Shown here: positions 1,207 through 42,650 of the stretch, piece after piece
Position numbering within the stretch: position 1 is the stretch's first letter
Layout: each line of letters begins with the position of its first letter
Sequence record: NC_049830.1
Origin: Escherichia phage PGN590
DNA: 49,043 bases
Strand: one strand, 5' to 3'
The notes under the pieces: generated by a model
What the model was told of the DNA's origin: nothing
Seen by the model: the letters and a program-made list of their open reading frames with translations, nothing else
Databases searched by the model: none
Position numbers and translations under genes: made by a program

Positions 1207-1226
1207 TTTTAACAAAAAGTGCTATT
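1207..1226 (-). promoter_or_regulatory. intergenic 20-bp repeat, promoter-like
   Basis: sense AATAGCACTTTTTGTTAAAA; overlaps TAA of 1225-1512; TAAAGT about 22 nt downstream. Confidence 0.55.
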
Positions 1227-1512
1227 AGCTCATATAATAAATTTCATCGCGCACAAAATCGTCAAAATCAGATTGCGTTAATGGTCGATCCTCTAATGCT
1301 GCCTGTTCAATCATTTCCACCAGGGCGCAATCCATAGCAAGGTAATGCGCATCAAGATCATACCATGAAGCCATTTGACGCGCCCAGGAGCGGCAATTCT
1401 TGAATCCGTAGCGTCGGATACAGTTTGCCGTGTGAAATGAGTCATTCCAACCACGCTCAAGCGCTGCCTTTTCGAATGCGTTAATCAACATTTTACGATT
1501 GCTTTTAGCCAT
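1225..1512 (-). CDS. hypothetical protein
   Basis: ATG 1510-1512 with GGAGG RBS; stop overlaps repeat motif. Confidence 0.55.
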   Translation of the reverse strand: MAKSNRKMLINAFEKAALERGWNDSFHTANCIRRYGFKNCRSWARQMASWYDLDAHYLAMDCALVEMIEQAALEDRPLTQSDFDDFVRDEIYYMS

Positions 1513-1555
1513 TTGATTCCTCCTTTTAGCGCCACCGAAGCGGCGCGATTAAACA

Positions 1556-1732
1556 TTATTTCTTTCCGGTCAGAATGTAGCGCTTGCCATTTTTAAATCC
1601 ATCGCCGTAGCCGTAATATGCGCCAGCCAGGAAGATAATCATTCCCCCGAATGACTCAACAATGCCGCTATACCCATAAGCCAAATGGGAACCAACGATA
1701 AGGGCAATAAAGGTGATAATTGCTCTTTTCAT
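1556..1732 (-). CDS. small membrane protein (2 predicted TM helices)
   Basis: ATG 1730-1732 overlaps upstream stop (ATGA); hydrophobic IITFIALIVG and GMIIFLAGAYYGY. Confidence 0.45.
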   Translation of the reverse strand: MKRAIITFIALIVGSHLAYGYSGIVESFGGMIIFLAGAYYGYGDGFKNGKRYILTGKK

Positions 1733-1992
1733 TCGTGATCCCATACGTCGCATTTTTTGACAACCAGCAAACGCAGCTTGTAAGGTCGGAACTTGTGCAA
1801 CTTTTTAGCGTATTCTCGCGCCTCACTGTAACTATTGAACTCCATAGCCCAAAAGCCTAAAGCATCATCCGTCAGATATTCCCAATCCCCACTAATAACG
1901 CGGCGGCGTTGCAGACAATAAATCTTGCATTCTGTGCAAGCAACGATCCGGTATTCAGGTTTGAAGATTCGTTTTAGTGCATTAAAAACCAT
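1729..1992 (-). CDS. hypothetical protein (CxxC pair)
   Basis: ATG 1990-1992 with GAGGG RBS; VACTECKIYC. Confidence 0.45.
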   Translation of the reverse strand: MVFNALKRIFKPEYRIVACTECKIYCLQRRRVISGDWEYLTDDALGFWAMEFNSYSEAREYAKKLHKFRPYKLRLLVVKKCDVWDHE

Positions 1993-2091
1993 AGTGCCGC
2001 CCTCACTGAATAAACAACTAAGAGAATAAAGAATAACACAATCATGATTTCATGAAAATTAAATGGAGGCTTTGGATTGGTTGCGTTGTTG

Positions 2092-2496
2092 TTATTTCCC
2101 AGCATTTCGCGCAATCCCTTTGTACATTCTGTAAAAATTACTGCCAGGATTTTTGAACTTGATCGCGTTTCGAGCAAGTCGGCGCATCCGTCGCGCATCG
2201 TATCGCGCTCGCTGAAATGGCATTTTCATTGTCTTAATATGGCAGCCGCGATGATCGCTGATTCGCTTAAGCTCAATCAAAACGCCTTGAGTTGCCACTA
2301 CGTAATAATGTTCAAATCCCAAACGGCGAGTTATGATATAGCCATTCTTGATGCGTGGTCGGTTAAACTCTTTGGTCGATCCGATATAGCGATCTGAAGC
2401 CGTTACAATCTCGCCTTTACGAATACCGCATATCTCACCACATACCCAGGTTACAACAAATTTTGTGCCTACGCGGATTTTTTGAAGTTCTAACAT
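2092..2496 (-). CDS. hypothetical protein, basic C-terminus (possible nucleic-acid binding)
   Basis: start set to ATG 2494-2496 (MLELQKIR) after GAGAGGG RBS; track start lies inside promoter-like TATAAT. Confidence 0.45.
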   Translation of the reverse strand: MLELQKIRVGTKFVVTWVCGEICGIRKGEIVTASDRYIGSTKEFNRPRIKNGYIITRRLGFEHYYVVATQGVLIELKRISDHRGCHIKTMKMPFQRARYDARRMRRLARNAIKFKNPGSNFYRMYKGIARNAGK

Positions 2497-2545
2497 GTTC
2501 AAGCCCTCTCGTTTATTGGTGTTTGCATTATAGCGAGGCATTGCG

Positions 2546-2570
2546 CCCCGCTTTTAGCAATTCGTGCTAT
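2546..2570 (-). promoter_or_regulatory. divergent repeat copy (AATAGCACGAATTGCTAAAAG), promoter-like
   Basis: overlaps TAG of kinase gene; GC hairpin then TATAAT (plus-strand 2526-2531). Confidence 0.45.
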
Positions 2571-3157
2571 TTGATCTTAACGTGTTTCCACTGGACAGTT
2601 TTGATGATCTCGTCAACTGTCTTTTCTGGATCGCCATCAGTCATTGTGAAGTCGTAATGTTTTATGCGGTGATGGTATCCGCTCAGGTCAATATAGTTTC
2701 GTGAATCGCCATCAAACGTGAAACCTTCGCGGTGCAGTCTGCAAATGTGAACTTCATGGCCTGCCTTAACGAGCGGCTTGATTTCTTCAGGAAATCCGCC
2801 ATCACTAATTACAACAGCCAAATCCCTGCACATCTCGTGTACTTGCTCAACCATGCGATTTCCGAAATATTGCTCGCCAAAAGCTGGCTTCATAATTTCT
2901 TCGCTAATCCAGATCATGAACTGGCGAGGCGACTTGCCTTGCAAGATTGCTTGAGGCTTTTCTTTCTGCTCGCGGTCGTTATACAGATCAATAAACTCGT
3001 CATATCGGTAAACGCCAAGCATGGAGAATGCAATATCAAACATAGGCTGTTTAAACGACGCTTTAACGGCTGCGTAACGATGACCTGTTAAGTATGCCGC
3101 AAGCGTATCCTTGCCAACTCCTGGCGGTCCGTTAAGGATTATAATGTCTCGCTTCAT
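2567..3157 (-). CDS. P-loop nucleotide/polynucleotide kinase-like protein
   Basis: Walker A LNGPPGVGKDT near N-terminus; GGAG RBS before ATG 3155-3157. Confidence 0.6.
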   Translation of the reverse strand: MKRDIIILNGPPGVGKDTLAAYLTGHRYAAVKASFKQPMFDIAFSMLGVYRYDEFIDLYNDREQKEKPQAILQGKSPRQFMIWISEEIMKPAFGEQYFGNRMVEQVHEMCRDLAVVISDGGFPEEIKPLVKAGHEVHICRLHREGFTFDGDSRNYIDLSGYHHRIKHYDFTMTDGDPEKTVDEIIKTVQWKHVKIK

Positions 3158-3351
3158 ATTAATTTTCTCCATATTGGATTGAATGTTTACCTGGACGCTG
3201 GCGCTTCTTGCGATAGCGTTGATTCGTCTCTTGGTGCTCGTGGTAGCTGTATCGCTTCTTTTTGGATACGATTTTCTCGAAGTTTCGCATCTTCATGATC
3301 TCATGTTGTTATCTCAACATAGCGCACTGCATGAATGCGCTATAGCAAGAA

Positions 3352-3537
3352 TCACCACTTAAATCCGCTTTCATCCCGCACAATCTGGTAAAGCGCCACC
3401 CAAAACCACACAAACCAGAAAATCAGAACAAGATGCTGATCTTTATCAGTGCAATCACACTCTTTAACCAATGCGCGGAAGATGAATAATCCTGAAATAT
3501 AAAAGAAAACCACTAAAAATACAAGTAACCAAATCAT
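3352..3537 (-). CDS. small membrane protein
   Basis: AAGGAGG RBS; two hydrophobic segments (LLVFLVVFFYISGLFIF, LIFWFVWFWVALY). Confidence 0.45.
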   Translation of the reverse strand: MIWLLVFLVVFFYISGLFIFRALVKECDCTDKDQHLVLIFWFVWFWVALYQIVRDESGFKW

Positions 3538-3611
3538 TTATTGCCTCCTTCAATTACCAGCGTGTAAAGCAGAACTGGATTTTGCATGTCGCGGCGGCGC
3601 GGCTCTAGTTG

Positions 3612-3797
3612 CTAATCTAGCCATGCACATTTACCGTTCGCCACAATATAACCCACCAGGTCACTAAGTTTTGATATACCGTCTCGACTAATCACGTTGT
3701 ATGCAACGTCTTCGCCGTCAATGGAATGGATAGCAAAGAAACTTGGCGCGCCGTCAATCTTGTCTACCGCTTTGAAAAACTCCACTTTATTAGCCAT
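3612..3797 (-). CDS. hypothetical protein
   Basis: ATG 3795-3797 preceded by conserved leader CATCGACAACAAACGAGGATTAAATC. Confidence 0.5.
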   Translation of the reverse strand: MANKVEFFKAVDKIDGAPSFFAIHSIDGEDVAYNVISRDGISKLSDLVGYIVANGKCAWLD

Positions 3798-3853
3798 GAT
3801 TTAATCCTCGTTTGTTGTCGATGGGCTTACTATACCGCAAGCCCGATAATCTG

Positions 3854-3873
3854 TTTTTGCAAAAAGTGCTATT
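3854..3873 (-). promoter_or_regulatory. intergenic repeat (variant TTGCAAAAA), promoter-like
   Basis: overlaps TAG of phosphatase gene; TATAGT 22 nt downstream, then conserved leader. Confidence 0.5.
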
Positions 3874-4582
3874 CAGCGTTAACAAAATCGCCGTCACTAT
3901 GATCGAATGACCAGGTACATCCAGAATCATCATGAACTATAAAGCTCTTGTCATGATAAGAAACAACGTCATAGGCTATTCCTCTAGTAAAGCTGGCATT
4001 GACCAAGCTGTCTTTGCTGCCGACGAATCTGGCGCGCTTCGTGATCTTGATGACCTCAACGCCGTGCGATTGGATGTGACTATGTGGCTTGTCGTATTCC
4101 GTGACCTGATAGGTTGTGATTCCCAGGCTGCGGAAGTGCTTAACCACGTTAGGCGAATCATCAAAAGCGCACACAATGTTTTCCAGTCCGATAGCGCGTA
4201 AGACTTCTTCTTTGATGATTGTGTCTTTGCGGTTATCTTCCTTGCGGCGCATGATTAACGCATCGTACTTGATGCCGCTTTCGTTAAGCCATTTGCAGGT
4301 GTCCGCCATTACTTCGTCGCTACGTCCGGTCAGGATAACAATGGCAAATCCTGACATCCATAATCCGTTAACCACTGCAACCGTGCTCTTAATCGGCGAA
4401 TCTCCAACAGCCGCCTTATTGAACTCAGACCAGCTTTCTGTAAGGTGCAAATCTTCTGTCGGAAGCAGGTGCAAGCGATGCGTTCCATCGGATAAAGTGC
4501 CGTCAAGATCAACAATAACAATCGGCTTGCTGGTGGAAAAATGGTATTTGCTGCCCCAAAGTTCAAATTCGTATTTTTTCAT
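3869..4582 (-). CDS. HAD-superfamily phosphatase (polynucleotide 3'-phosphatase-like)
   Basis: DxDxT motif VIVDLDGTLSDG near N-terminus; ATG 4580-4582. Confidence 0.6.
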   Translation of the reverse strand: MKKYEFELWGSKYHFSTSKPIVIVDLDGTLSDGTHRLHLLPTEDLHLTESWSEFNKAAVGDSPIKSTVAVVNGLWMSGFAIVILTGRSDEVMADTCKWLNESGIKYDALIMRRKEDNRKDTIIKEEVLRAIGLENIVCAFDDSPNVVKHFRSLGITTYQVTEYDKPHSHIQSHGVEVIKITKRARFVGSKDSLVNASFTRGIAYDVVSYHDKSFIVHDDSGCTWSFDHSDGDFVNAE

Positions 4583-4593
4583 TATCAAACCTA

Positions 4594-4815
4594 TCAATTA
4601 AAGTGGATTTGCTTGTATTCGATTTCATCTGCCAGATCATTTAACTTATCCGCCAGCTTGCGCACCTGGTCAATGGTGAGTATTGACCTAAAATCCGGCC
4701 TGCGCCCACCCTCAAACGTGCCATCAATAAACACGCGATCTCCGAACTTATATACTTCAAGTGAATCACCATGATTATCAATAAACTTGTGCTTGACGCG
4801 CTTATTTGTTTCCAT
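4594..4815 (-). CDS. hypothetical protein
   Basis: ATG 4813-4815 with GAGGAAG RBS. Confidence 0.5.
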   Translation of the reverse strand: METNKRVKHKFIDNHGDSLEVYKFGDRVFIDGTFEGGRRPDFRSILTIDQVRKLADKLNDLADEIEYKQIHFN

Positions 4816-5032
4816 CTTTCACTTCCTCAAATTCAGCAATTACCATAGCGTGCGCCATAACCTTAGTGCCTTCGCCTCCGTTCAGGAACATGCGATGCCC
4901 TTTACTATTGCTCACGTAAAATGATCCGGTTGATGATTTCATCTTTTGCGCCGTATAGATTTCGCCAGGCTTGAACATACCAGAGCAAGCATAGTTAACG
5001 GAAACGCATTTCATCTTCTTTTTAATGTACAT
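4802..5032 (-). CDS. hypothetical protein
   Basis: start moved to ATG 5030-5032 (AAGGA RBS); track start lies inside repeat motif. Confidence 0.45.
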   Translation of the reverse strand: MYIKKKMKCVSVNYACSGMFKPGEIYTAQKMKSSTGSFYVSNSKGHRMFLNGGEGTKVMAHAMVIAEFEEVKDGNK

Positions 5033-5086
5033 CGTTTTATATCCTTCATTGAAAGTGAGGCCATTATACCTGGCCCCACATTTGAG

Positions 5087-5106
5087 TTTTAACAAAAAGT
5101 GCTATT
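5087..5106 (-). promoter_or_regulatory. intergenic 20-bp repeat, promoter-like
   Basis: canonical copy; consensus TATAAT at plus-strand 5063-5068, 21 nt downstream. Confidence 0.6.
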
Positions 5107-5330
5107 TCTTAATACATAGCGTGTGAGTGTACGCATAAAACCTGTTGTTGCTCTTGATCTGCTCTCGTGCCTCAATGCAAGATTGCTGGCTATTCATTTC
5201 GATATGGTCAACGCCGCCATCAATCATAAGAATCAGTAAAATCCAAGTAGCCATCTCTCACCTCAATAAAAGATAAACAGGTAGGCAAACAATCCGATCC
5301 ATGCGGCGACGTGCGCCGCAGTGAACAAAC

Positions 5331-6212
5331 TCAAATCTTTACCTCCCACTTAACCATCGTTCCGCGCTTGATGCTGATCTCACCTGCAACAGTCCGGTTT
5401 TTAGAGCCGCCATAGTGAAGCAGGAGGATAACAACATCATCATGAATCTCGATAGTCTTTGGTTTCGCCGTTAATTCATACCAGATGCCGTCATCAAGCT
5501 GGACTCCTTTTAGCGTAGCTGCAAGTGGCATATCTTCAATGGCGCTCTGACTTACGAGGTTTCGCGCAACAATGCCATGCCCATTGATTGTTTGACTGTG
5601 AATCTGTTCACCAATACGTCGCGCGGCGTTATCTATAGCCTGAGCAATGTGTGACTTACCGCCACCGATTGGCGCATCTCCAAACAAGTGTTTTGTAATG
5701 TCTTCCACATAGTAAATCTTATCTTTTTCATTGTGCGGATTGTATTTATTATGACCATTAACAAAGAAATCCACCTTAAGCTCTGATTTCTGACCATCGC
5801 TATAAACGCCATTGTCGCGCGATGTGTAGCGAATCGTTGAATTACCAGCGGAGCGGAAAGTGATCGGATATTTGATATTATCCACGTCTAAGCACCACAA
5901 TTTTTTGTAGTCGCATGTATTCATCTTGATCATCGGAATCTCTGCGCGTTCCGGTGAGCGCACCGGTAACACCTGGCCCCTGTATGGCTTGTAGTGGAAA
6001 CATGTATATCCTGGCATTGCATAGCCGTAGTCTTTTCGCGAGTTATAGTGCTTGTTATGCACATCAATGAAGTACTCAATCTCCATTGATGAAACACCAG
6101 GCTTTCCGTATTCGTTAAACGTAGTGCATGTATTTTCATCGGTGAACATGAAGTGTCCGACCCCCTTTGATTGGAAGGTGATCGGGAATTTGATGTTAGC
6201 AAGTTTTAACAT
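5331..6212 (-). CDS. hypothetical protein with tandem duplicated N-terminal domain
   Basis: AGGAGA RBS; NIKFPITFQSKG...FIDVHNKHYN repeated as NIKYPITFRSAGN...FVNGHNKYNP; IGGGKSH Walker-A-like segment. Confidence 0.55.
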   Translation of the reverse strand: MLKLANIKFPITFQSKGVGHFMFTDENTCTTFNEYGKPGVSSMEIEYFIDVHNKHYNSRKDYGYAMPGYTCFHYKPYRGQVLPVRSPERAEIPMIKMNTCDYKKLWCLDVDNIKYPITFRSAGNSTIRYTSRDNGVYSDGQKSELKVDFFVNGHNKYNPHNEKDKIYYVEDITKHLFGDAPIGGGKSHIAQAIDNAARRIGEQIHSQTINGHGIVARNLVSQSAIEDMPLAATLKGVQLDDGIWYELTAKPKTIEIHDDVVILLLHYGGSKNRTVAGEISIKRGTMVKWEVKI

Positions 6213-6291
6213 GGTGCTTTCTCCTGATTGGTTTTGTGGGCGACGCCGTGCCGCCCTATGTTATTTATTATGCCTGGTTATCGTTTTTTAG

Positions 6292-6311
6292 TTTTAACAA
6301 AAAGTGCTATT
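6292..6311 (-). promoter_or_regulatory. intergenic 20-bp repeat, promoter-like
   Basis: abuts TAA of 6311-6496; CATAAT about 22 nt downstream. Confidence 0.55.
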
Positions 6312-6496: not shown

Positions 6497-6511
6497 TTAT
6501 TCACCCGCTAA

Positions 6512-6697: not shown

Positions 6698-6754
6698 TTT
6701 GTTTTCCTCAATCTCGTTTCGATGAGGCTATTATGCCAGGCTTTGCGCCTGGCG

Positions 6755-6774
6755 TTTTAACAAAAAGTGCTATT
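6755..6774 (-). promoter_or_regulatory. intergenic 20-bp repeat, promoter-like
   Basis: overlaps TAG of lipoprotein gene; GC hairpin in spacer; CATAAT downstream. Confidence 0.55.
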
Positions 6775-8150: not shown

Positions 8151-8161
8151 ACCAGTCAGCA

Positions 8162-8180
8162 AATAGCACTTTTTGTTAAA
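8162..8180 (+). promoter_or_regulatory. intergenic repeat, promoter-like (first rightward promoter)
   Basis: TACATT 22 nt after TTGTTA; drives 8244 gene; dyad element just upstream. Confidence 0.55.
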
Positions 8181-8243
8181 CCTGAATTGCCATGATCGGG
8201 TACATTAGACACATCGAAACGAGATACCCATCAGGAGATAGCA

Positions 8244-8771: not shown

Positions 8772-9038
8772 ATGGCACGAATCAATGCACCTATTCCAGT
8801 AAAACGCAAAGCACGACTGCTTAACAATGGATGTTACGCCATGCGGCCTGCATTTAAGGATCGCACCTTTCCGGTTATCGTCAACGTGTTGTACGTAAGC
8901 CGTAGCGGGAATCTGGCCTTTGTTAGCGGTGAAGATCTGGCGGCGATTGGATTCTATGGCGGTATTTACAGCGAACCGCTCGGATTCTGGATTGTAAATC
9001 CGTCAACTGGAGAACGCGAAATCGAACTCCTGGACTAA
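8772..9038 (+). CDS. hypothetical protein
   Basis: GAAGGGGAAA RBS; stop overlaps repeat motif. Confidence 0.5.
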   Translation: MARINAPIPVKRKARLLNNGCYAMRPAFKDRTFPVIVNVLYVSRSGNLAFVSGEDLAAIGFYGGIYSEPLGFWIVNPSTGEREIELLD

Positions 9039-9056
9039 TAGCACTTTTTGTTAAAA
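9037..9056 (+). promoter_or_regulatory. intergenic 20-bp repeat, promoter-like
   Basis: overlaps TAA of 8772-9038; TACATT 22 nt downstream; conserved leader. Confidence 0.55.
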
Positions 9057-9114
9057 CTCAATCCTCGTGTTCCTGTACATTACACACATCAACAACGAAT
9101 GCGAGGATTTGAAA

Positions 9115-9267: not shown

Positions 9268-9547
9268 ATTTTACAGCTACACCGATACCGTGGATTTTGA
9301 GGGGATACAATTGCCCCTCCCTAATATATACCGCTATATCACGCGTGACGAACGCGGATATATTGAAGCGTGGCGCTCATATCCAGTGCGGGATCTTGAA
9401 TTTGGCGGCTTCCGCTCTCTTGAGGGTGAGTTGCCGATCTGCTTCGGTCATCAAAGCGGTGAAAATCTTCCGGTTGTTGCGCGGCAGTATCGCAGACACA
9501 AGATCACAAGAGCACTTATCTCTTTAACTGGATCTGTTGTTGAATAG
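9257..9547 (+). CDS. hypothetical protein
   Basis: ATG 9257 overlapping upstream gene end; stop TAG inside repeat motif. Confidence 0.45.
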   Translation: MSSKFYSYTDTVDFEGIQLPLPNIYRYITRDERGYIEAWRSYPVRDLEFGGFRSLEGELPICFGHQSGENLPVVARQYRRHKITRALISLTGSVVE

Positions 9548-9562
9548 CACTTTTTGTTAAAA
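9543..9562 (+). promoter_or_regulatory. intergenic 20-bp repeat, promoter-like
   Basis: overlaps TAG of 9257-9547; TATATT 22 nt downstream; conserved leader. Confidence 0.55.
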
Positions 9563-9618
9563 ACGGTATGCGCCTGAATGGTATATTACATCCATCAACA
9601 ACGAACGAGGATTTAAAA

Positions 9619-10094: not shown

Positions 10095-10195
10095 ATGAAG
10101 CTAATAATATTCCATAATGCCTGGATGGTAGCTGTTGCAAATGATCATTATGGCGGAGACGGCAAGCGAGCAAAGCGCCACAGCTATTTCAACTG

Positions 10196-10214
10196 ATAGC
10201 ACGAATTGCTAAAC
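10196..10214 (+). promoter_or_regulatory. divergent repeat copy (ATAGCACGAATTGCTAAAC), promoter-like
   Basis: CATAGT 22 nt after TTGCTA; upstream of 10269 gene. Confidence 0.45.
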
Positions 10215-10268
10215 AATATTTCTAAAACCTGGCATAGTTACAACACCAAATATAATGAGGATTGCATA

Positions 10269-10887: not shown

Positions 10888-11598
10888 ATGCATAAAGGTT
10901 TGATTTTCTCTTTGTTTGATGGATCTGGTAAAGCCGTTAAAGATTGGGCTGACGCTGGATATAAATGCATTTGCTTTAATTACGATGATGCTGATCACGG
11001 TGATTACCACTCAGTGCGCATAATCCACGACAATATTTTTTACGTTAATGTGTGGATTGATGAGCTATTCAAATATACCGCAAAACTTGAAAATTGGGGT
11101 AAGCCTGATTTTATTATGGCGTTCCCTCCATGCACTGACCTTGCAAATAGCGGATCTCGCCATTGGGCTAAAAAACGCATTGAGAATCCATCGTTCCAGG
11201 ATGAAGCCGCCGACACTTGCAAAATAGCGGCGCAAATTGCTGATTATTTCGGTGTTCCGTACATGATAGAGAATCCTGTAGGCAAGCTGTCAACGCTATG
11301 GCGCAAGCCTGATTATACGTTCCATCCGTGCGATTATGCTGGCTATCTGCCGGAAGATGATAAACATCCCGACTTTCCTGATATTATTCCGGCGCGGGAT
11401 AGGTACTTTAAGAAAACATGCCTTTGGACTGGAAACGGATTTGTTATTCCTCCTCGCGCAACAATCCTTCCTAAAGAGGGCGACAAGGATAATCCTGGTT
11501 GGGCCAAAACTGGCGGAAAATCATCTCGCACAAAGATGATCCGCTCCCTCACACCGCGCGGTTTTGCTCGCGCAGTATTTGAAGCAAACGCAAAATAG
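10888..11598 (+). CDS. DNA (cytosine-5) methyltransferase-like protein, compact
   Basis: motif I-like LFDGSGKA, PC motif AFPPCTDLANSGS, ENV-like MIENPVG; no obvious target-recognition domain. Confidence 0.5.
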   Translation: MHKGLIFSLFDGSGKAVKDWADAGYKCICFNYDDADHGDYHSVRIIHDNIFYVNVWIDELFKYTAKLENWGKPDFIMAFPPCTDLANSGSRHWAKKRIENPSFQDEAADTCKIAAQIADYFGVPYMIENPVGKLSTLWRKPDYTFHPCDYAGYLPEDDKHPDFPDIIPARDRYFKKTCLWTGNGFVIPPRATILPKEGDKDNPGWAKTGGKSSRTKMIRSLTPRGFARAVFEANAK

Positions 11599-11613
11599 CA
11601 CTTTTTGTTAAAA
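11594..11613 (+). promoter_or_regulatory. intergenic 20-bp repeat, promoter-like
   Basis: overlaps TAG of methyltransferase-like gene; CATAAT at 11633-11638. Confidence 0.55.
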
Positions 11614-11669
11614 GCTAGGTGTAAAAGCCTGGCATAATCACTTCACCGAAACGAAAGGAGAAATAAACG

Positions 11670-12056: not shown

Positions 12057-12274
12057 TCAAGGCTGAATATCGCTATAAGGTGACTCATTCAGCAACAAAA
12101 ACCTTCAAGCCTGGCGATATAGTCAGGCCAATAAAGAAAACGATGGTTGGATGGCTGATTGGTCTTTCTTACCACAAATCACTTTATTTTGATTTTGCTG
12201 ATTCCGTAACCGCGTATTGCCATAGCGCAAGGGAACCAGAAAAAATCTTAGTTAGCATAGAGCGGATCAAATAG
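12053..12274 (+). CDS. hypothetical protein
   Basis: GTG start overlapping upstream stop (GTGA); stop TAG inside repeat motif. Confidence 0.4.
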   Translation: MIKAEYRYKVTHSATKTFKPGDIVRPIKKTMVGWLIGLSYHKSLYFDFADSVTAYCHSAREPEKILVSIERIK

Positions 12275-12288
12275 CATTTTTTGTTAAA
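12270..12288 (+). promoter_or_regulatory. intergenic repeat (variant AATAGCATTTTTTGTTAAA), promoter-like
   Basis: overlaps TAG of 12053-12274; TATTAT at 12309-12314 inside a hairpin. Confidence 0.5.
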
Positions 12289-12343
12289 TGCGGGTAGCAT
12301 TGGTGCGGTATTATTGCCGCATCAAAAAAAGGAGTTATCATCA

Positions 12344-17319: not shown

Positions 17320-17376
17320 TTTTATTTCCTCATGTTTGTTTCGTTGAAATAATTATGCCCGACACAAAGCCGGGCG

Positions 17377-17396
17377 TTTTAACAAAAAGTGCTATT
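17377..17396 (-). promoter_or_regulatory. intergenic 20-bp repeat, promoter-like
   Basis: overlaps TAG of 17392-17631; GC hairpin in spacer; CATAAT downstream. Confidence 0.55.
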
Positions 17397-18337: not shown

Positions 18338-18396
18338 TTCTTAATTACCTGTTGCTTGTTGAACTGGTGTTATTATGGCGCAATCCTTCGCGCCTG

Positions 18397-18416
18397 TTTT
18401 AACAAAAAGTGCTATT
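18397..18416 (-). promoter_or_regulatory. intergenic 20-bp repeat, promoter-like
   Basis: overlaps TAG of VRR-NUC gene; CATAAT downstream; upstream of dam. Confidence 0.55.
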
Positions 18417-20863: not shown

Positions 20864-20921
20864 TCTAAAACCTTTGAGTAATGCCATTTGGCGTGTATAA
20901 TACACAATCATTAAATCATCG

Positions 20922-20940
20922 TTTAACAAAAAATGCTATT
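20922..20940 (-). promoter_or_regulatory. intergenic repeat (variant), promoter-like, helicase side of divergent region
   Basis: sense AATAGCATTTTTTGTTAAA; TATTAT (plus-strand 20897-20902) downstream. Confidence 0.5.
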
Positions 20941-20952: not shown

Positions 20953-21426
20953 ATGAAAGAAAAGCGGATCGCGGTATCAACTGGCAAAATTGACAAACGC
21001 ACAATCAATGGCAATAACGGAACTCGACGTGGTAAAGATAAGAAAAAGCGCAAGCGCCCTACAGGATACTATGTTTTAAAAGATGAAGTGCGCGCAGGAC
21101 TAAAAGCACGGCTTGACATTCTTATTGAGTATTACGGAAGCGTGTCAGCAATGGCAAAGCGTCTTAACGTTAGCCAGCAAACTGTAAATCAGTGGCGTGT
21201 TCGAGGTATGATTTCAGCCGCTGGCGCTCAAAAGGTGCATAACGATTACAAGAAATATGGTTGTCAAGGCTATCGCGCTTCATTCTGCCGTCCAGATCTA
21301 CGATTTGATTCCAATGGCAAACCGCTCACAAAGAGATGTGATAAGCGTGAAATGTTGCGAGTAGTAAGAATGTCAGATTATGAACCTGGCGGATTCCTGT
21401 ATAAACCTGAAAGCACTAATTGCTAA
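20953..21426 (+). CDS. HTH DNA-binding protein (putative regulator)
   Basis: basic N-terminus, HTH-like SVSAMAKRLNVSQQTVNQW. Confidence 0.45.
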   Translation: MKEKRIAVSTGKIDKRTINGNNGTRRGKDKKKRKRPTGYYVLKDEVRAGLKARLDILIEYYGSVSAMAKRLNVSQQTVNQWRVRGMISAAGAQKVHNDYKKYGCQGYRASFCRPDLRFDSNGKPLTKRCDKREMLRVVRMSDYEPGGFLYKPESTNC

Positions 21427-21481
21427 AAACAATGCCTGGCATGATGTTATCATCTGTCAGGCTTTTTTGTTTGAGGTGTAT

Positions 21482-26605: not shown

Positions 26606-26686
26606 ATTTATTTCCTCACGCTTGTTGTTAACTTATGCGGTGAATTATAACACCGCATTTTTCATTTGTTTAGCTATTTGTGCTGT

Positions 26687-27748
26687 TTAAATAAGATATT
26701 GCTTAAACTGGCGGCGCACCCAATCAGGAGTATCAAGGCAAACCTCAGGCTCACCGTTTGAATACGAAGGCCAAACGTCATGTTGCTGGCACATGGCAAA
26801 CTGGTTAATCACGCTCGTGTACTGAATGCGCCCGATCTTCAACTGCTCGCTATTCATGCGGAAAGCCAACGGCAAATAAGGCTCTTTCTTCTCTTGGGCT
26901 AACAGTCGCACAACTATAGGTCGCTTTTCTTCTGGATATGCTTTCCTGAATAAATCACATTGCAACGCCATTTTCAAATAATATCCGTGATTGTAAGCCA
27001 GGCGCATAAACTCAACCGGATTAGCGCTCATTGTGGTTTTGTAGTCTGTGATCACAATGGCCTCTGGATAAATAATATCTCTGCAAATAGGCTGGCCTTT
27101 TTCATCGTAACCATCAATCAGCGTTGCGGTGACGTTCTTTGTTACGTCAACGTGATCGCATCGAACTTTGACTTTTACGCCGTTAATTTCACCGAATAGC
27201 GATAATTCACGTTGTGCTGTCTTGCTATTCATACATGCGTTATGTTCAGGTATGGATTCAAGAACCTGGCGCATTGCCACGCACGCATCGTAATCTTTAG
27301 CCTCGATTAACTGAACCCCATCGGCCCTGGCTTGACTTTCTGCGATCATCTCAATCAACCACATAACGTTAAGGTCTTCTCCGCAATCAACCATCATTTT
27401 GATAAGATCTGGATAAGTCTTTCCGGTTGTACCTTTCAGGCCAAATGATTTCAGTTTTGCAGCCAGCGCCGTTTGGCTAGTTATCAGATCCTTAAAGTCT
27501 TCTGTCGCTGGCGCACGGCGATAGTTTTTTTCGAAAAGCTCCTTGCTTTCAAAGTTGGTATGCGACTGCGTACCGAAAACTAGCGCTTTGCTCTTATCAT
27601 CACGAGGCTTGAACTTCCACGCCGCCGGGCATGTGCTGTAAATCTCTGCCAGGCTTGATCCGCTAACATAATCAGCCGTCCACGCTTCTGGATCGTGATA
27701 AAGCTCGTTGCTCATTTCTTCGCTGGTGTACGCCATAAACTTATTCAT
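26687..27748 (-). CDS. RecB-family PD-(D/E)xK exonuclease
   Basis: ITDYKTT motif typical of RecB/Cas4-type nuclease domains; partner position to Erf. Confidence 0.65.
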   Translation of the reverse strand: MNKFMAYTSEEMSNELYHDPEAWTADYVSGSSLAEIYSTCPAAWKFKPRDDKSKALVFGTQSHTNFESKELFEKNYRRAPATEDFKDLITSQTALAAKLKSFGLKGTTGKTYPDLIKMMVDCGEDLNVMWLIEMIAESQARADGVQLIEAKDYDACVAMRQVLESIPEHNACMNSKTAQRELSLFGEINGVKVKVRCDHVDVTKNVTATLIDGYDEKGQPICRDIIYPEAIVITDYKTTMSANPVEFMRLAYNHGYYLKMALQCDLFRKAYPEEKRPIVVRLLAQEKKEPYLPLAFRMNSEQLKIGRIQYTSVINQFAMCQQHDVWPSYSNGEPEVCLDTPDWVRRQFKQYLI

Positions 27749-28172: not shown

Positions 28173-28191
28173 AATAGCACTTTTTGCTAAA
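28173..28191 (+). promoter_or_regulatory. intergenic repeat (variant TTGCTAAA), promoter-like
   Basis: in control region 2; TATAGT at 28211-28216; drives lipoprotein gene. Confidence 0.5.
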
Positions 28192-28247
28192 CGCACGCCG
28201 CAAGATCGTGTATAGTTGCAACTAACAATAACTAAGGAGAAAACAAG

Positions 28248-38860: not shown

Positions 38861-38873
38861 TTCTTTCTCCTTG

Positions 38874-38892
38874 ATAGCACTTTTTGTTAAAA
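38874..38892 (+). promoter_or_regulatory. repeat copy oriented antisense to the late genes
   Basis: ATAGCACTTTTTGTTAAAA on plus strand between major tail and G genes; TATCAT 22 nt downstream. Confidence 0.4.
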
Positions 38893-38931
38893 GAATTGAT
38901 TATGAATCGTGTATCATGATTGTACAGTAAC

Positions 38932-38954
38932 AAAAAAAGGGGCGCAACGCCCCT
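38932..38954 (-). terminator. intrinsic terminator after major tail gene
   Basis: AGGGGCG-caa-CGCCCCT plus seven U on minus strand. Confidence 0.75.
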
Positions 38955-38959
38955 TGTGA

Positions 38960-39622
38960 TTATGCTACTTGAGAAGGTAGGAAGGTGAATCGACCTTTCA
39001 GGGATACAGAAAGGGAAACAGTTTCCATTTCGTTAACGGTCGTTTGTGGGATCTCGTTAAACGAAAGCACACCAGCCCAGCAACGCATCTCTTTTGCTTT
39101 TGGTACATACATGCGAAGAGCGGTTACTTCTCCTGATTCATCTGCTGAACGCAATAGCGGATAGATCGCGTTATCGTATTCGTGCGCAAAAGTGTAGGTA
39201 AGAGAAACGGCGCTCTTATATGTAGGTAACTGCTGTTCTTGATCGTCTGCCAAACACTGATAAGTGTAGTATTGCTGTTCGCCGCCGTCCTGCGACAAAT
39301 CTTGAACGCAAGGAATCTCAGTCCATGCATCAATTTTTGCAAAAGATGCAGTACCGCCAGACGGGAAAACGTTCTGATCAGTAGTATCTACACCTTCAAG
39401 AGTCACGCTTGTTTCTTCGCCGTTAGCCTTTACACGCATAACACGATCAATCAGCTTACCCCAAGAAGACGCAGTGATGATAACATAATCACCTTTCTTG
39501 TACGAAGTGCCGCCAGATGCAACGGTGAATACAGGATCTTTAGCGTTTGATACTGCCGTTGCTTGGATTTCGCTGCCGCGATTGCTCTCAACGAAAATTT
39601 GCGATCCATTTGGTAAATGCAT
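38960..39622 (-). CDS. major tail protein
   Basis: AAAGGAG RBS; position immediately upstream of chaperone genes; strong terminator after stop. Confidence 0.6.
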   Translation of the reverse strand: MHLPNGSQIFVESNRGSEIQATAVSNAKDPVFTVASGGTSYKKGDYVIITASSWGKLIDRVMRVKANGEETSVTLEGVDTTDQNVFPSGGTASFAKIDAWTEIPCVQDLSQDGGEQQYYTYQCLADDQEQQLPTYKSAVSLTYTFAHEYDNAIYPLLRSADESGEVTALRMYVPKAKEMRCWAGVLSFNEIPQTTVNEMETVSLSVSLKGRFTFLPSQVA

Positions 39623-40822: not shown

Positions 40823-41235
40823 TTGCAACGTCTCCGAAATCCAGTCACAAGGCCAAATCCACCGCCTTTCTTACGATTTAGCGTTTCATACATTTTTCCC
40901 CAGGGAGTTTGTCTAATCTCTTTTCCGCCAGAGTCGCCTGACACTCGATCAAAAGTCTGGCTAAATTCACCAGTCAGGGAAAATGATGCAACTCGCCGCG
41001 AGTAACTTTCTACGCTTTCCCCTTCTTGCTTCATTGCTCCGTCAAGCGTCATAAGGTGCAACGTATAAAGAGCAACCGCTTTGGGATATGATTCTTTAAA
41101 CCGCTTCTTGCAAACAAATTCCTTTGCAAGATCAATCCATGCCGCCATTAAATCTGGATCAATCTGCTTCATCGGTGGCGCCAATTTCACGATTTGCTGC
41201 GTGATTTCTGCGTCAGTGAAAAATTCATCAACCAT
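40819..41235 (-). CDS. head-tail connector protein (by position)
   Basis: GGAGGAA RBS; synteny downstream of capsid gene. Confidence 0.4.
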
Positions 41236-41282
41236 TGTGTTTCCTCCAGATATGACAAAGGGCGCTTATAGCGCCCTCTTTA

Positions 41283-41555
41283 TTAATAGATGCCGCCGTC
41301 TTCAAGTTCGGCTTTGCTCTTGCCCTCTCGCGGGTCTTTTTTACGTTTGCTTGCTGCGCTCTGTTTGATTTCTTCGTTCAATGCGGAGTTATCTTTAACC
41401 TCCAGATCGCCTTTTGCAATTAGATATTCAAACGCGCTTGTTTTCAATTTTGATTCTTCTACGTCAAACTCTTTTCCTGGGTGATAATGCTCACCATCAA
41501 CAATGATAAGGCACACGCCGGAAACCTTTAGCGTTACAGTTTTTTCTTTAGCCAT
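41283..41555 (-). CDS. hypothetical head-associated protein
   Basis: GGAGG RBS directly after terminator hairpin 41577-41598. Confidence 0.4.
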   Translation of the reverse strand: MAKEKTVTLKVSGVCLIIVDGEHYHPGKEFDVEESKLKTSAFEYLIAKGDLEVKDNSALNEEIKQSAASKRKKDPREGKSKAELEDGGIY

Positions 41556-41570
41556 TTCATAACCTCCAAT

Positions 41571-41598
41571 AAAAAAGGGAATCCAGTTAAGGATTCCC
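41571..41598 (-). terminator. intrinsic terminator after major capsid gene
   Basis: GGGAATCC-agttaa-GGATTCCC plus six U; GGAGG RBS follows. Confidence 0.7.
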
Positions 41599-41611
41599 CA
41601 ATGCTATACGA

Positions 41612-42586
41612 TTAACCTGTTTTTTTCAAGCCAGTAATAAGCACTAGCGTAAACGGACGGTAAATCGTCAGGCCAGTGCATTTTGAAGTGCACGGAACTT
41701 TGAAATGCAGATCTTTTGGTTGCGCCGGAAGCATGTTAAATGCTTCTGGAATTTCGATAGACATGTTCATCGGGTCTTTCTCATATACCAGGCAACCTTT
41801 CGTTCCAGTGCCATCAATATCCTCAAGCTCTGCGATTGAGTCGAAGGTTATTCCGCTGTTTTGTTTCTGGAAGTATTCCAGATAACTTTCAGTGGTGTTT
41901 TCCATTCGAACAGAAAGAACCTTGCGCATAGACGGCGGAATCAGGATATTGGTTGCGCGGTGCTGACCATTGGTGATGGTCTGAATGGTTTCAATAGCCT
42001 TTTCCAGTTCATCAGATGCTGCCTGCGGGAACTTAGTGTTTTCATCAGCACTTAACCAGCCAGTTGACACGATCTTTGTCAGGTTAGGATGTTCAAACAC
42101 CGAAAGAATCTTATGCGGCTTTGAACCCTTAAACACCAGGCGGTTAACTTCCTGATCATGAGCGTTTTGCGCTGCGTTTGCCTTGCGAGTCGAAAGGCTC
42201 TTACCAGTGCGCTGACCAGCCTTGATTTCGTCAATGGAGATCAAGAACGCGTTACCCAGGCGGAACACCTTGCCAAACTCGCTTGACATTAAAGCGTCAA
42301 CAGTTGGCAGATCGTCGGTGTAATCAGCGATAATTTTTGCGTAACCAACCCTGTCAAACATCTGATATTCAAAAGTCTTATCAGTATCAGAAAGCTCATT
42401 AGTTACAGGGAACACACGAAGCGCTGAACCTGCCGGATACTCTTTCTCGTAAGCAGTTGAGCGGATCTTGTGAAGCTCTTGCGCCGTCCAGATACCCATA
42501 TCAGAAGCATCACCCTTAACGCCGCGAGTAGCCAGATAGCTAGAAACAATATCCGCATCTAGCTGATCAAATTTTTCTTTTTCCAT
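41612..42586 (-). CDS. major capsid protein
   Basis: 324 aa; GGAGGAAGAA RBS; position between scaffold/decoration genes and head-tail genes. Confidence 0.8.
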   Translation of the reverse strand: MEKEKFDQLDADIVSSYLATRGVKGDASDMGIWTAQELHKIRSTAYEKEYPAGSALRVFPVTNELSDTDKTFEYQMFDRVGYAKIIADYTDDLPTVDALMSSEFGKVFRLGNAFLISIDEIKAGQRTGKSLSTRKANAAQNAHDQEVNRLVFKGSKPHKILSVFEHPNLTKIVSTGWLSADENTKFPQAASDELEKAIETIQTITNGQHRATNILIPPSMRKVLSVRMENTTESYLEYFQKQNSGITFDSIAELEDIDGTGTKGCLVYEKDPMNMSIEIPEAFNMLPAQPKDLHFKVPCTSKCTGLTIYRPFTLVLITGLKKTG

Positions 42587-42632
42587 TTTCTTCCTCCATA
42601 TATAAAGGTCGTTAGTATGTAACGGACCAATG

Positions 42633-42650
42633 ATAGCATTTTTTGTTAAA
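42633..42650 (+). promoter_or_regulatory. repeat copy oriented antisense to the late genes
   Basis: ATAGCATTTTTTGTTAAA on plus strand upstream of capsid gene; weak TATGAG 22 nt downstream. Confidence 0.35.

Follow-up and report, generated by a model that had tools for sequence, protein, structure and literature searches.

A repeated intergenic element of Escherichia phage PGN590 resembles the marbox of class II host promoters

The DNA examined here, referred to as the window, is a stretch of 49,043 nucleotides from Escherichia phage PGN590 (NC_049830.1), a T1-like coliphage of the Drexlerviridae, genus Hanrivervirus, with ~93% identity to phage herni. Distributed along it are 20 copies of a repeat with the pattern AATAGCAC-nnn-TTG-n-TAAAA. 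A search with AATAGCACTTTTTGTTAAAA allowing three or fewer mismatches located 16 of these (0.03 expected by chance; equalled in none of 100 shuffles), and the repeat family noticed in a preliminary description of the window is thus confirmed. That description counted 18 copies rather than 20, and several of its coordinates were wrong by 1-6 nt. A relaxed-core search added the copies at 2552-2571 (minus strand, formerly placed at 2546), 10195-10214 (plus strand), and 21409-21428 (plus strand). One more divergent copy lies at 26668-26687 on the minus strand, and the positions 20922, 38874, and 42633 become 20921, 38873, and 42632. The repeat itself has been published before, in the 2024 re-annotation of phage TLS (PMC11447400), where intergenic 21-nt direct repeats with the consensus aaATAGCACnnnTTGnTAAAA were reported in TLS, T1, Rtp, and Rogue1. 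[quoted passage not shown] A stoperator, an enhancer site, and an UP element were named as options for their function; the fixed -10 hexamer, the marbox match, the hairpin classes, and the reversed copy in the capsid promoter presented below do not form part of that report. The units of the window, each composed of the element, a gap, and a hexamer, are as follows.

1182..1226, minus strand: unit, AATAGCACTTTTTGTTAAAA, 19 nt, TAAAGT; hairpin around the -10; would drive the 70-aa gene at 937-1149
2527..2571, minus strand: unit, 'GAA' variant, AATAGCACGAATTGCTAAAA, 19 nt, TATAAT; spacer hairpin; TAG stop of a P-loop gene within the element
3829..3873, minus strand: unit, AATAGCACTTTTTGCAAAAA, 19 nt, TATAGT; hairpin around the -10; TAG stop of the polynucleotide kinase within the element
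5063..5106, minus strand: unit, 20-mer, 18 nt, TATAAT; hairpin around the -10
6267..6311, minus strand: unit, 20-mer, 19 nt, CATAAT; without a spacer hairpin
6730..6774, minus strand: unit, 20-mer, 19 nt, CATAAT; TGg before the -10; spacer hairpin CCAGGC/GCCTGG
8162..8206, plus strand: unit, AATAGCACTTTTTGTTAAAC, 19 nt, TACATT; full classical marbox consensus matched exactly
9037..9081, plus strand: unit, 20-mer, 19 nt, TACATT
9543..9587, plus strand: unit, 20-mer, 19 nt, TATATT
10195..10238, plus strand: unit, 'GAA' variant, GATAGCACGAATTGCTAAAC, 18 nt, CATAGT; classical marbox consensus matched exactly
11594..11638, plus strand: unit, 20-mer, 19 nt, CATAAT; spacer hairpin; TAG stop of the cytosine methylase within the element
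12270..12314, plus strand: unit of the 527-aa helicase gene, AATAGCATTTTTTGTTAAAT, 19 nt, TATTAT; hairpin around the -10
17352..17396, minus strand: unit, 20-mer, 19 nt, CATAAT; spacer hairpin
18372..18416, minus strand: unit of the Dam methylase gene, 20-mer, 19 nt, CATAAT; spacer hairpin terminator-like on the opposite strand
20897..20940, minus strand: unit of the 680-aa helicase gene in a divergent region, AATAGCATTTTTTGTTAAAC, 18 nt, TATTAT
21409..21453, plus strand: unit of the primase gene, GAAAGCACTAATTGCTAAAA, 19 nt, TATCAT; within the 3' end of the HTH gene
26644..26687, minus strand: divergent 20th unit, AACAGCACAAATAGCTAAAC, 18 nt, TATAAT; hairpin around the -10; upstream of the gene at 26327-26605 and the erf and ssb genes
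28173..28216, plus strand: unit of the cor superinfection-exclusion gene, AATAGCACTTTTTGCTAAAC, 18 nt, TATAGT; classical marbox consensus matched exactly
38873..38917, plus strand: unit antisense to the late genes, located between the major tail and tail chaperone genes, GATAGCACTTTTTGTTAAAA, 19 nt, TATCAT

As judged from the ORF ends, 14 of the 20 copies share bases with the stop codon of the gene upstream, in agreement with the earlier statement that this is the case for most of them. The stop is a TAG inside AATAG in nine copies, a TAA that uses flanking bases in four, and a TAA in the 3' half in one. Except for these overlaps the copies are intergenic, as had been described. The copy at 8162 was thought to have no upstream gene, but ORF 7869-8195 runs through it. 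Eighteen of the 20 units face a start codon located 73-99 nt from the beginning of the 20-mer, with a ribosome-binding site at a fixed distance downstream. The unit at 38873..38917 would fire into a bidirectional terminator (38937-38955), and its TAnnnT is retained in all orthologues.

A hexamer of the form [T/C]A-nnn-[T/G] follows every copy, 19 nt past the 20-mer in 14 and 18 nt past it in six. It had been placed 21-23 nt after TTGTTA and is found at 21-22 nt in all 20. The motif is both conserved and fixed in position in a sample of 371 distinct units from ~40 relatives, some with a helicase only 64-73% identical and including contigs at the identity level of Klebsiella Webervirus. In these units [TC]AnnnT, with a background rate of 3% per position, occurs exactly 19 nt past the 20-mer in 83% and at 18-20 nt in 94%, such that the spacing is kept to within 1 bp in the latter fraction. 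The unrelated enterobacterial phage DS8 has no such sites, which argues that the design is a trait of the lineage rather than one forced by the host. Immediately upstream of the -10, a G is found at -14 in 84% of the units and a T at -15 in 41%; a good -10 combined with this G may allow substantial activator-independent activity. No -35 hexamer is present at the expected position, where the window units average 1.95 matches of six. A conserved CA lies 7 nt after the -10 and 47 nt downstream of the G of GCAC. Canonical sigma-70 promoters are rare in positions 1-20000 (27 versus 41.5 expected); two operons are headed by them (7545-7573 and 27778-27805, both on the minus strand). The fixed hexamer, together with conservation and position in the relatives, supports the earlier proposals that the repeats constitute a promoter family, that the hexamer is its -10, and that TTGTTA lies too far upstream for a sigma-70 -35 box. 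The accompanying suggestion of an UP-element half-site did not hold. The T-run is the variable part (TTT, GAA, TAA, AAA), whereas GCAC and TTG-n-TAAA are invariant, and this pattern points to a sequence-specific protein site. Our reading of the sequence is that the repeat represents a promoter family and is neither an UP element nor a displaced -35.

The marbox is an asymmetric 20-bp site bound by the monomeric AraC/XylS-type activators MarA, SoxS, and Rob, with RamA as the corresponding activator in Klebsiella, Salmonella, and Enterobacter. Two models of it were employed, namely the ChIP-derived gcannwwntgnnaaa (PMC12052159) and the classical AYnGCACnnWnnRYYAAAYn. The former has 22 exact matches in the window versus 1.8 expected; these cover 19 of the 20 copies and miss only the divergent one at 26668-26687. 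In T1 the same model gives 20 matches versus 0.5 expected. AYnGCACnnWnnRYYAAAY is matched exactly four times in the window versus 0.05 expected. The marbox register corresponds to positions 2-20 of the 20-mer as previously delineated plus the next base (2-21). Across the 371 units, the only variable positions are the n, n, W, Y, and last two of the marbox; W is only ever A or T, Y is C in 43% and T in 57%, and GCAC, TG, and AAA are conserved at at least 93-100%. Counting against a marbox, the phage motif is far more uniform than those of the host. An A at marbox position 3 and TT at 11-12, free in the host, are fixed in the phage, and at position 19 the phage usually has A in place of the Y of the classical consensus. 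This uniformity could reflect a different, more specific binder, or concerted evolution together with overlapping stop-codon and T-run functions.

In class II promoters a forward marbox overlaps the -35 region with its center near -41, the -10 is canonical, and there is no recognisable -35 (an average of 1.9 matches of six). The phage units share with the micF and fumC promoters a common asymmetric 20-bp site (A site GCAC, B site YAAA), its orientation and register, a canonical -10, and the absence of a -35 hexamer. At micF (NC_000913.3), 18 bp separate the marbox ACAGCACTGAATGTCAAAAC from the downstream TAGAAT; in the phage the site is likewise forward, and the gap is 18 bp in 14 of the 20 copies and 17 bp in six. 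The G of GCAC is located at -48 from the annotated micF 5' end, at -46 at fumC, and at -47 in the paper describing the Rob-TAC structure. The phage differs in that ~20 near-identical copies occur in a 49-kb virulent genome as opposed to degenerate single chromosomal sites, and in that the units, for which binding by the host proteins is predicted, incorporate an upstream stop codon and a nested hairpin. On balance, each repeat is probably a marbox within a class II activator-dependent sigma-70 promoter.

In the forward marbox, GCAC occupies approximately -47 to -44 and TAAA approximately -36 to -33, with a near-consensus -10 placed 18 bp downstream. By analogy with the solved Rob-RNAP-micF complex, the bound activator would replace the contact between sigma region 4 and the -35, touch the alpha C-terminal domain as well as sigma region 4, and recruit the host RNA polymerase. 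Transcription is predicted to begin at the conserved CA, yielding a leader of ~25-30 nt (AUCGAAACGA...GAGG), and approximately 18 units would head small operons of one to four early or replication genes each in both early arms.

The remaining copy is positioned differently, within the following feature.

42630..42657, minus strand: late promoter of the major capsid gene, TTGCAC (42657-42652), 16 nt, TATCAT (42635-42630)

The -10 of this conserved promoter is preceded by TGc. A promoter spacer as such needs no particular sequence. The reverse-complemented repeat (42632-42651) constitutes the spacer and part of the -10, and this reversed copy is nearly invariant across five genera. A marbox in the spacer of Escherichia coli pbpG leads to repression by MarA, SoxS, and Rob (PMC12052159). 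Both promoters thus carry a site in the stretch that separates the -35 from the -10, and by analogy an activator bound to the reversed site should repress capsid transcription, although for the phage this effect is only inferred.

With regard to the binder, a phmmer search of the six-frame translation with MarA gave no match, and Pfam found no HTH_18/AraC match in any of the non-structural ORFs. The sole DNA-binding signature is that of one conserved Cro-like HTH protein of 157 aa (20953-21426). The immediate-early DUF7174 protein is of the alpha/beta type, with no significant match in the PDB. Given that no AraC-like protein was found in the phage and that nearly all early genes depend on the units, the site is most likely bound by a host protein that is already there at time zero, and we infer that MarA, SoxS, and Rob, or RamA in Klebsiella, are the likeliest binders. 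The first candidate is Rob, a constitutive and abundant protein, to which MarA or SoxS would add under stress. Unstressed cells contain little MarA or SoxS and keep Rob largely sequestered until it is induced, and the fast growth of T1-like phages in plain broth counts against the marbox reading. The loci affected in classical T1-resistant mutants are fhuA and tonB, not rob; redundancy of the three activators would hide a rob phenotype. Klebsiella hosts possess RamA, MarA, SoxS, and Rob. A literature search retrieved no paper connecting mar/sox/rob with T1-like phages. A near-perfect copy of the marbox before ~18 early genes, at the very place from which the stress and antibiotic-resistance activators of the host act on their own promoters, suggests that the phage borrows these activators to run the genes.

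An unlikely alternative is that a phage-encoded protein, either the 157-aa HTH protein or an immediate-early protein such as DUF7174, binds the 20-mer and directs the host polymerase to -35-less promoters. The T4 middle promoters, with their MotA box and AsiA sigma appropriation, form just such a phage-wide class in which a protein site replaces the -35 contact, and their core TTGCT is superficially alike. The MotA box, however, is centered at -30, ~12 bp from the -10, unlike the phage site at ~-41, and no MotA or AsiA homologue was found in the phage. The uniformity of the motif would suit a dedicated protein, and the operons with canonical promoters could supply an early factor. The HTH gene has its own ribosome-binding site adjoining a copy, on the other strand of the element of unit 20897..20940, and the C variants contain an inverted repeat, TAGCA-N5-TGCTA, appropriate for a dimeric HTH protein. 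Half of the units, however, break this palindrome (TTGTTA). Conservation is asymmetric (AATAGCAC versus TTGnTAAAA) and the orientation to the -10 is strict, such that a monomeric binder with two HTH motifs fits better than a symmetric dimer. That a phage-specific site should by chance agree with the marbox in its 18-bp spacing as well as in sequence, degeneracy pattern, and orientation is very unlikely, and, as noted, no AraC-like fold or family was found in the phage. An accumulating phage-made activator would also increasingly repress the capsid promoter, the wrong direction for a late gene.

It is quite improbable that the promoters are activator-independent, with the host polymerase using the strong -10 and the 20-mer offering the alpha C-terminal domain a contact of the UP-like or bent A/T-tract kind, an option raised both in the TLS paper (PMC11447400) and in the preliminary description. 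The T5 and A4 tracts do resemble the UP-element core, which is TTTT-nn-AAAA. The bases at -14 and -15 are in keeping with such activity, and several E. coli class II marbox promoters show MarA-independent basal activity. Nevertheless, the tract varies (GAA and TAA variants) around an invariant GCAC and TTG, the distance of the element from the -10 is ~9 bp shorter than that of an UP element, and no conserved G and C are needed for contacts of the alpha C-terminal domain.

The GC-rich hairpin present in about half of the units is under selection. Folding energies of -10 or lower were obtained for 59% of units versus 9.6% of random 41-mers, and the hairpin of unit 12270..12314 is preserved in orthologues although the stem sequences differ. 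A hairpin next to the hexamer had been described as frequent; only 10 of the 19 copies folded have a spacer hairpin, five enclosing the -10 and a distinct five adjoining the A-run. The proposed antisense terminator is partly supported: only five of 19 hairpins are near enough to the A-run for TTTTAAC to follow on the opposite strand, and a simple terminator scan flags one hairpin only. In unit 21409..21453 the hairpin and T-run double as a sense-strand terminator. Ends of homology blocks relative to related phages fall inside units in 13% of cases versus 6% expected. Each of the four early genes with the greatest divergence from herni comes first after a unit, and the cassette gene at 5331-6212, downstream of unit 6267..6311, is only 60% identical to its herni counterpart. 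These hairpins and boundaries, along with a copy placed in a promoter spacer where binding should repress, would suit a chiefly non-promoter element (a stoperator repressor site, terminator module, or recombination linker), but this is very improbable, since a TAnnnT so fixed in position, followed by the CA and ribosome-binding site at fixed distance, cannot be an incidental -10, and such roles are add-ons compatible with a promoter rather than alternatives to one.

For units read as marbox promoters, the nested stem-loop would probably attenuate or insulate transcription arriving from upstream, by analogy with the PeSL cassettes of the T4-type phages RB49 and phi1 (PMC2839356); in a minority it resembles an antisense terminator as well. 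The PeSL cassettes are likewise repeated and intergenic, extending from a stop codon to the next ATG. Both comprise an early promoter whose GC-rich stem-loop covers the -10 or falls between it and the upstream element. Each PeSL promoter is of the full sigma-70 type, with a -35 and A/T-rich upstream sequence, whereas the phage units carry a marbox in place of the -35; mini-circle formation and terminator activity were measured for PeSL. The identical cassettes are probably exchange points in gene shuffling, and both types are associated with small orphan genes and mosaic boundaries.

The 20-mer AATAGCACTTTTTGTTAAAA is found in 16 copies in the window with three or fewer mismatches, as compared to 0.03 expected. 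Variants centred on GAA or TAA occur at 2552-2571(-), 10195-10214(+), and 21409-21428(+), and a more divergent copy at 26668-26687(-) brings the total to 20. The preliminary description of an 18-copy repeat is borne out by these results, apart from small coordinate slips and two copies that were missed. A hexamer of the form (T/C)A-nnn-(T/G) follows all 20 copies, 19 nt on in 14 and 18 nt on in six, and in 18 the distance from the first base of the repeat to a co-oriented start codon is 73-99 nt. The stop codon of the upstream gene, taken from the ORF ends, overlaps the repeat in 14 copies. In T1 the same design is present 18 times. When phage TLS was re-annotated in 2024, 18 intergenic 21-nt direct repeats with the consensus aaATAGCACnnnTTGnTAAAA were listed, for which roles as stoperators, enhancer sites, or UP elements were proposed and the function was left as a question (PMC11447400); a literature search revealed no other paper on the repeat. 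It is a real and previously published element and a component of promoters. New here is its reading as a marbox, the 20-bp binding site of the host activators MarA, SoxS, and Rob, in the class II configuration.

Genes were assigned by carrying over the annotation of phage herni by tblastn. The first 12 kb of the window are 91-93% identical to herni, JakobBernoulli/Bas07, and pSf-1, which are coliphages of the genus Hanrivervirus (Drexlerviridae, Tempevirinae). Host genera of the phage family include Escherichia, Shigella, Salmonella, Klebsiella, Citrobacter, and Enterobacter. The overall layout is as follows.

Gene blocks of the window
7508 down to 1, leftward: small early gene block
7869-14322, rightward: early block
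20863 down to 14455, leftward: replication and lysis block
20953-24738: regulator-primase-tail fibre block
27748 down to 25128, leftward: recombination block
28248-28475: cor gene
48994 down to 28508, minus strand: late structural genes

The anatomy of the unit, defined as the repeat, 18-19 nt, and the -10-like hexamer, was examined in a family set consisting of herni, T1, and, from IMG/VR, 37 loci surrounding the helicase gene (helicase protein identity 64-100%). A loose match allowing five or fewer mismatches in 21 yielded 371 distinct units. The IMG/VR pattern scan, in which the loci are fragmentary and the multi-copy contigs measure 46-53 kb save one of 28 kb, was used only qualitatively. 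In 308 of the 371 units (83%) the distance from the 20-mer to a [TC]AnnnT hexamer is exactly 19 nt, and in 94% it is 18-20 nt, against a background of 3% per position; the spacing noted in the preliminary description is indeed kept among relatives. The hexamer profile is (T/C)ATAAT, with the second-position A present in 89% and the last-position T in 91%, and there is a G at -14 in 84% of the units. Seven nucleotides past the hexamer, where transcription is expected to start, is a conserved CA (75-78%) followed by the leader tCGAAACGA, likewise conserved, and by a Shine-Dalgarno sequence. The -35 position reads AAAAcn, with a mean match to TTGACA of 1.95/6. Variation in the 20-mer is found at positions 9-11 (T/G, T/A, T/A), 15 (C 43%, T 57%), and 20-21, with the remainder 92-100% conserved, and the asymmetry of AATAGCAC versus TTGnTAAAA is kept throughout. 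Units of the same design are also present in distant relatives.

Canonical sigma-70 promoters are scarcer than expected in the early half of the window (27 versus 41.5), and only two strong ones were found there. Both are candidate immediate-early promoters with no need of a marbox.

Strong canonical sigma-70 promoters of the early half
7573-7545, minus strand: TTGACA-17-AATAAT, before the operon for DUF7174, a putative immediate-early protein
27805-27778, minus strand: TTGACT-16-TACAAT, before recE

Given the conserved -10, CA, and Shine-Dalgarno anatomy and the paucity of canonical sigma-70 promoters, the units appear to be the main early promoters of the phage. They are -35-less promoters with a conserved 20-bp site centred near -41, and that they function as promoters is very likely in our judgment. 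The leader from +1 to +30 (6700-6729 on the minus strand, for example) reads CAUCGAAACGA or CAUCAACAACGA and then GAGG. Rich in A and C and lacking structure, it might serve as a translational enhancer.

From its second base the element reads ATAGCAC-nnW-TTG-Y-TAAA-(A/C), and the classical marbox consensus is AYnGCACnnWnnRYYAAAYn. The full 19-mer of that consensus has four exact sites in the window versus 0.05 expected, the divergent copy at 26668-26687 among them, and the remaining copies depart from it at position 19 only, where an A replaces Y. A marbox form derived from ChIP data, gcannwwntgnnaaa (PMC12052159), has 22 exact matches in the window versus 1.8 expected and 20 in T1 versus 0.5 expected. 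It fits 19 of the 20 copies, the exception being 26668-26687. Among the 371 units the variation is confined to the degenerate positions of the marbox, such that W is only A or T and Y only C or T. The site is asymmetric and oriented, with 18 of the 20 copies facing the same way as the downstream gene.

In class II mar/sox/rob promoters a forward marbox lies over the -35 region, clustered near -41, no -35 hexamer can be recognised (mean match 1.9/6 in Salmonella), and the -10 is normal (PMC12052159, PMC10268841). The cryo-EM structure of Rob, RNA polymerase, and micF places the GCAC of the A site with its G at -47 and its A at -45, and the CAAA of the B site overlaps the -35 (PMC9178005). Sigma region 4 is there moved off the DNA by Rob, which contacts both this region and the alpha C-terminal domain (PMC9178005). 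In MG1655, micF consists of the marbox ACAGCACTGAATGTCAAAAC, 18 bp, TAGAAT, and an RNA 5' end 8 nt on. The phage units consist of a marbox at approximately -50 to -31, 18 bp (17 in a minority), and a -10, and the G of GCAC lies 47 nt upstream of the conserved CA. For fumC, with the marbox ATGGCACGAAAGACCAAACA, this G is at -46 from the mapped start, and the mar marbox, ATGCCACGTTTTGCTAAATC, has the B half GCTAAA in common with the phage. The units thus display the forward marbox near -41, the fixed distance to a canonical -10, and the missing -35 hexamer of class II promoters. The agreement with this class extends to sequence, degeneracy, orientation, and register, and we estimate the chance of such agreement by an unrelated conserved 20-mer to be well below one in a million. 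A marbox-type activator-site geometry is considered likely. In the host fumA-fumC intergenic region, 4 nt separate the T-run behind the fumA terminator hairpin from the fumC marbox, which is how terminator and marbox are packed in the phage cassettes too.

Several other identities for the site were considered. The Lrp consensus, YAGHAWATTWTDCTR, is matched at 11-12 of 15 positions, but Lrp leaves the fixed geometry unexplained and the central mismatches fall at conserved Lrp positions. An UP-element half-site had been suggested in the preliminary description on account of the A/T runs; UP elements, however, have A/T tracts from -59 to -38 and no conserved G/C, whereas the phage element occupies -51 to -32, contains invariant GCAC and TTG, and is variable precisely in its A/T centre, so that the suggestion is not supported. 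A sigma-54 promoter (-24/-12, TGGCAC-N5-TTGC) shares the GCAC and TTG(C/T) blocks, but their separation is 3 rather than 5 nt, AG replaces GG, and a sigma-70-type -10 lies at a fixed distance. A dimer operator, TAGCA-N5-TGCTA, can be discerned, but its palindrome is broken in half of the units and the flanks are asymmetrically conserved. A sigma-28 promoter (TAAA-N15-GCCGATAA) is 2 nt out of register and lacks the CGA core. The similarity to a MotA box is in the wrong position, and TTGTTA as the -35 of another -10 has nothing 17 nt downstream.

With regard to the protein that binds, the marbox in its class II configuration points first to host MarA, SoxS, and Rob as candidates, both for early activation and for gating of the capsid promoter. 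Since almost all early genes lie behind units, the simplest solution is a factor that is already there when infection begins. Rob expression is constitutive and high; MarA and SoxS are stress-induced, with RamA taking the role in Klebsiella. Host MarA, SoxS, or Rob would then bind the repeats and drive early transcription in T1-like phages. A search with phmmer of the six-frame ORFs of the window, using a MarA query, detected no AraC/XylS-type phage protein, and a Pfam search of the concatenated non-structural ORFs gave no HTH_18 or AraC match ("Serglycin" matches are an artefact of the GS linker). The sole DNA-binding signature in the phage is a single Cro-like HTH in a conserved 157-aa protein encoded beside the primase gene, for which PHROGs and PDB searches returned the Cro-like domain only.

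The HTH gene and its terminator
20953-21426, plus strand: 157-aa HTH protein, Cro/YdaS-like HTH at residues 54-91, basic N-terminus
21417-21460, plus strand: sense terminator of the Cro-like HTH gene, hairpin GCCTGGCATGATG...CATCTGTCAGGC then TTTTTTGTTT

This protein may be a regulator of the early-to-late switch. The ribosome-binding site of its gene directly adjoins the reversed repeat of the helicase promoter, and a promoter of its own is not evident. DUF7174, expressed from the one clear canonical immediate-early promoter, is predicted by AlphaFold to have an alpha/beta fold (pLDDT 77.5), and the model has no significant match in the PDB. The unrelated outgroup Shigella phage DS8 has no such sites and no marbox enrichment, which argues that the unit design is a lineage trait. 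Against host factors, the phage motif is far more uniform than host marboxes, some positions free in the consensus are fixed, and position 19 is mostly A. Rob is also reported to be largely sequestered in the absence of inducers. A literature search yielded no published MarA, SoxS, or Rob binding data for these repeats. On balance, dependence of the early promoters on a host protein is moderately favoured.

Many of the units contain hairpins. Of the 19 window copies folded, 10 have a strong stem-loop, with a folding energy no higher than -11 and a z no higher than -3.5, in one of two placements.

Hairpins in the units
2571, 6774, 11594, 17396, 18416: hairpin within the spacer
1226, 3873, 5106, 12270, 21409: hairpin with the -10 in its loop

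Across relatives, 59% of 326 units fold with an energy of -10 or lower, versus 9.6% of random 41-mers (p = 6e-45). In orthologous helicase promoters the stem around the -10 is kept while its sequence differs (GGTGCGG, GGGCCGT, GTTGCCGT, GGTTGACC, GGTTCCGG). The enrichment, together with the retention of stems with different sequences, indicates that the structure is under selection. Situated ahead of the predicted start, the hairpin can be formed only by DNA or by RNA whose transcription began further upstream, and it is missing from the four units without a co-oriented upstream gene (20940, 28173, 38873, and 42632). The stem-loops of the promoter-early stem-loop (PeSL) cassettes of T4-type phages have the same two placements and were shown to work as terminators or attenuators (PMC2839356); in both systems a stable stem-loop is nested in a repeated intergenic promoter. 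On the basis of position, pattern of absence, and this precedent, the hairpins are read as probable insulators against read-through. The earlier proposal that the units double as terminators on the opposite strand could apply to the five spacer hairpins only, where the tail would be TTTTAAC and a simple scan flags one. In the 21409 unit the terminator of the HTH gene overlaps the primase promoter, the -10 of which sits in the hairpin loop. A search of Rfam identified no known RNA family in the window.

T1 has the two antisense copies, 38873 and 42632, in the corresponding places and with the same orientation. On the late strand, 42632-42651 falls inside the canonical promoter of the major capsid gene.

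Major capsid late promoter
42580-42700, minus strand: TTGCAC, 16 nt, TATCAT preceded by TGc

The spacer and one half of the -10 come from the reversed repeat, with the predicted start ~37 nt before the ATG. This arrangement is kept in eight phages of five genera, with the reversed site near-invariant and the flanks diverging; the T1 promoter is TTGACG-16-TGcTATTAT, and an A-rich tract (ATAACAtAAAA) precedes TTGCAC or TTGACG. In most relatives a 5'-UTR hairpin and then TTT precede the capsid ribosome-binding site. The plus-strand hexamer after the 42632 copy lacks its final T in every orthologue (TATGAG, TATACA, TATTCA), and this copy is thus not an antisense promoter. In E. coli pbpG, a marbox in the spacer leads to repression by MarA, SoxS, and Rob (PMC12052159). 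By analogy, the activator of the early promoters might also hold the capsid promoter off. The 38873 copy keeps TAnnnT in all orthologues (TATCAT, TAGCAT, TAAGAT, TAGGAT, TAGAGT, TATATT), and its unit (38873-38960, plus strand) is aimed antisense to the late genes, into a bidirectional terminator behind the major tail gene. The predicted RNA, running from 38924 to ~38960 on the plus strand, is ~35-45 nt, and the same arrangement is observed in T1, herni, and several IMG/VR contigs.

Taken further, Rob, MarA, or SoxS at infection would activate ~18 early and replication promoters while repressing the late capsid promoter. Upon replication, ~20 high-affinity sites per genome in hundreds of copies, with host synthesis shut off, would titrate the activators; the early promoters would fade and the capsid promoter open, a copy-number timer requiring no phage-encoded regulator. 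That the temporal programme of T1-like phages is wired wholly to mar/sox/rob, timer included, is regarded as rather unlikely. If such a timer operated, infection efficiency would vary with the state of the host in respect of antibiotics, bile, or oxidative stress, and phage DNA would be a sink blunting the multidrug-resistance response.

The marbox reading itself provides a specific and immediately testable answer to the question of repeat function. It would exemplify a virulent phage family using host stress and multidrug-resistance activators for most early promoters, in contrast to plain sigma-70 promoters or a factor encoded by the phage. If this proves correct, Drexlerviridae infection should be altered by the state of the mar/sox/rob regulon, including marR mutants (common in resistant clinical isolates), bile salts, salicylate, and redox drugs, with relevance to phage therapy and phage-antibiotic combinations in E. 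coli, Shigella, Salmonella, and Klebsiella. Studies of class II activation would also gain from the units as a natural collection of compact, very strong marbox promoters.

The units may also be sites of exchange. Ends of homology blocks with relatives fall in units in 13% of cases versus 6% expected (~two-fold), many exactly at the 5' edge of the repeat, although intergenic DNA is less conserved, a confounder that makes these breakpoints weak evidence. Divergence from herni is greatest in four early genes (60-77% identity versus ~95% for their neighbours), each of which is the first after a unit; our own arithmetic gives a probability of about 0.016 for this. These observations hint at PeSL-like cassette exchange at the units.

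A few additional features deserve mention. The annotated first rightward gene (7869-8195, plus strand) encodes 108 aa with a hydrophobic N-terminus, spans the repeat at 8162, and stops 14 nt past it; the overlap may be genuine, or else the gene has been over-called. One G-poor, A/C-rich plus-strand tract of ~170-200 bp with CACA, TATATA, and CATACCCATA motifs is present in each of the two divergent control regions (7690-7860 and 27900-28100); possible identities are an origin, a binding array, and a long leader. Finally, ~20 GenBank records labelled "Campylobacter phage" (A14a and A113, for example) are 95-97% identical to the window in the region tested and look like T1-like contaminants or phages with mis-assigned hosts.
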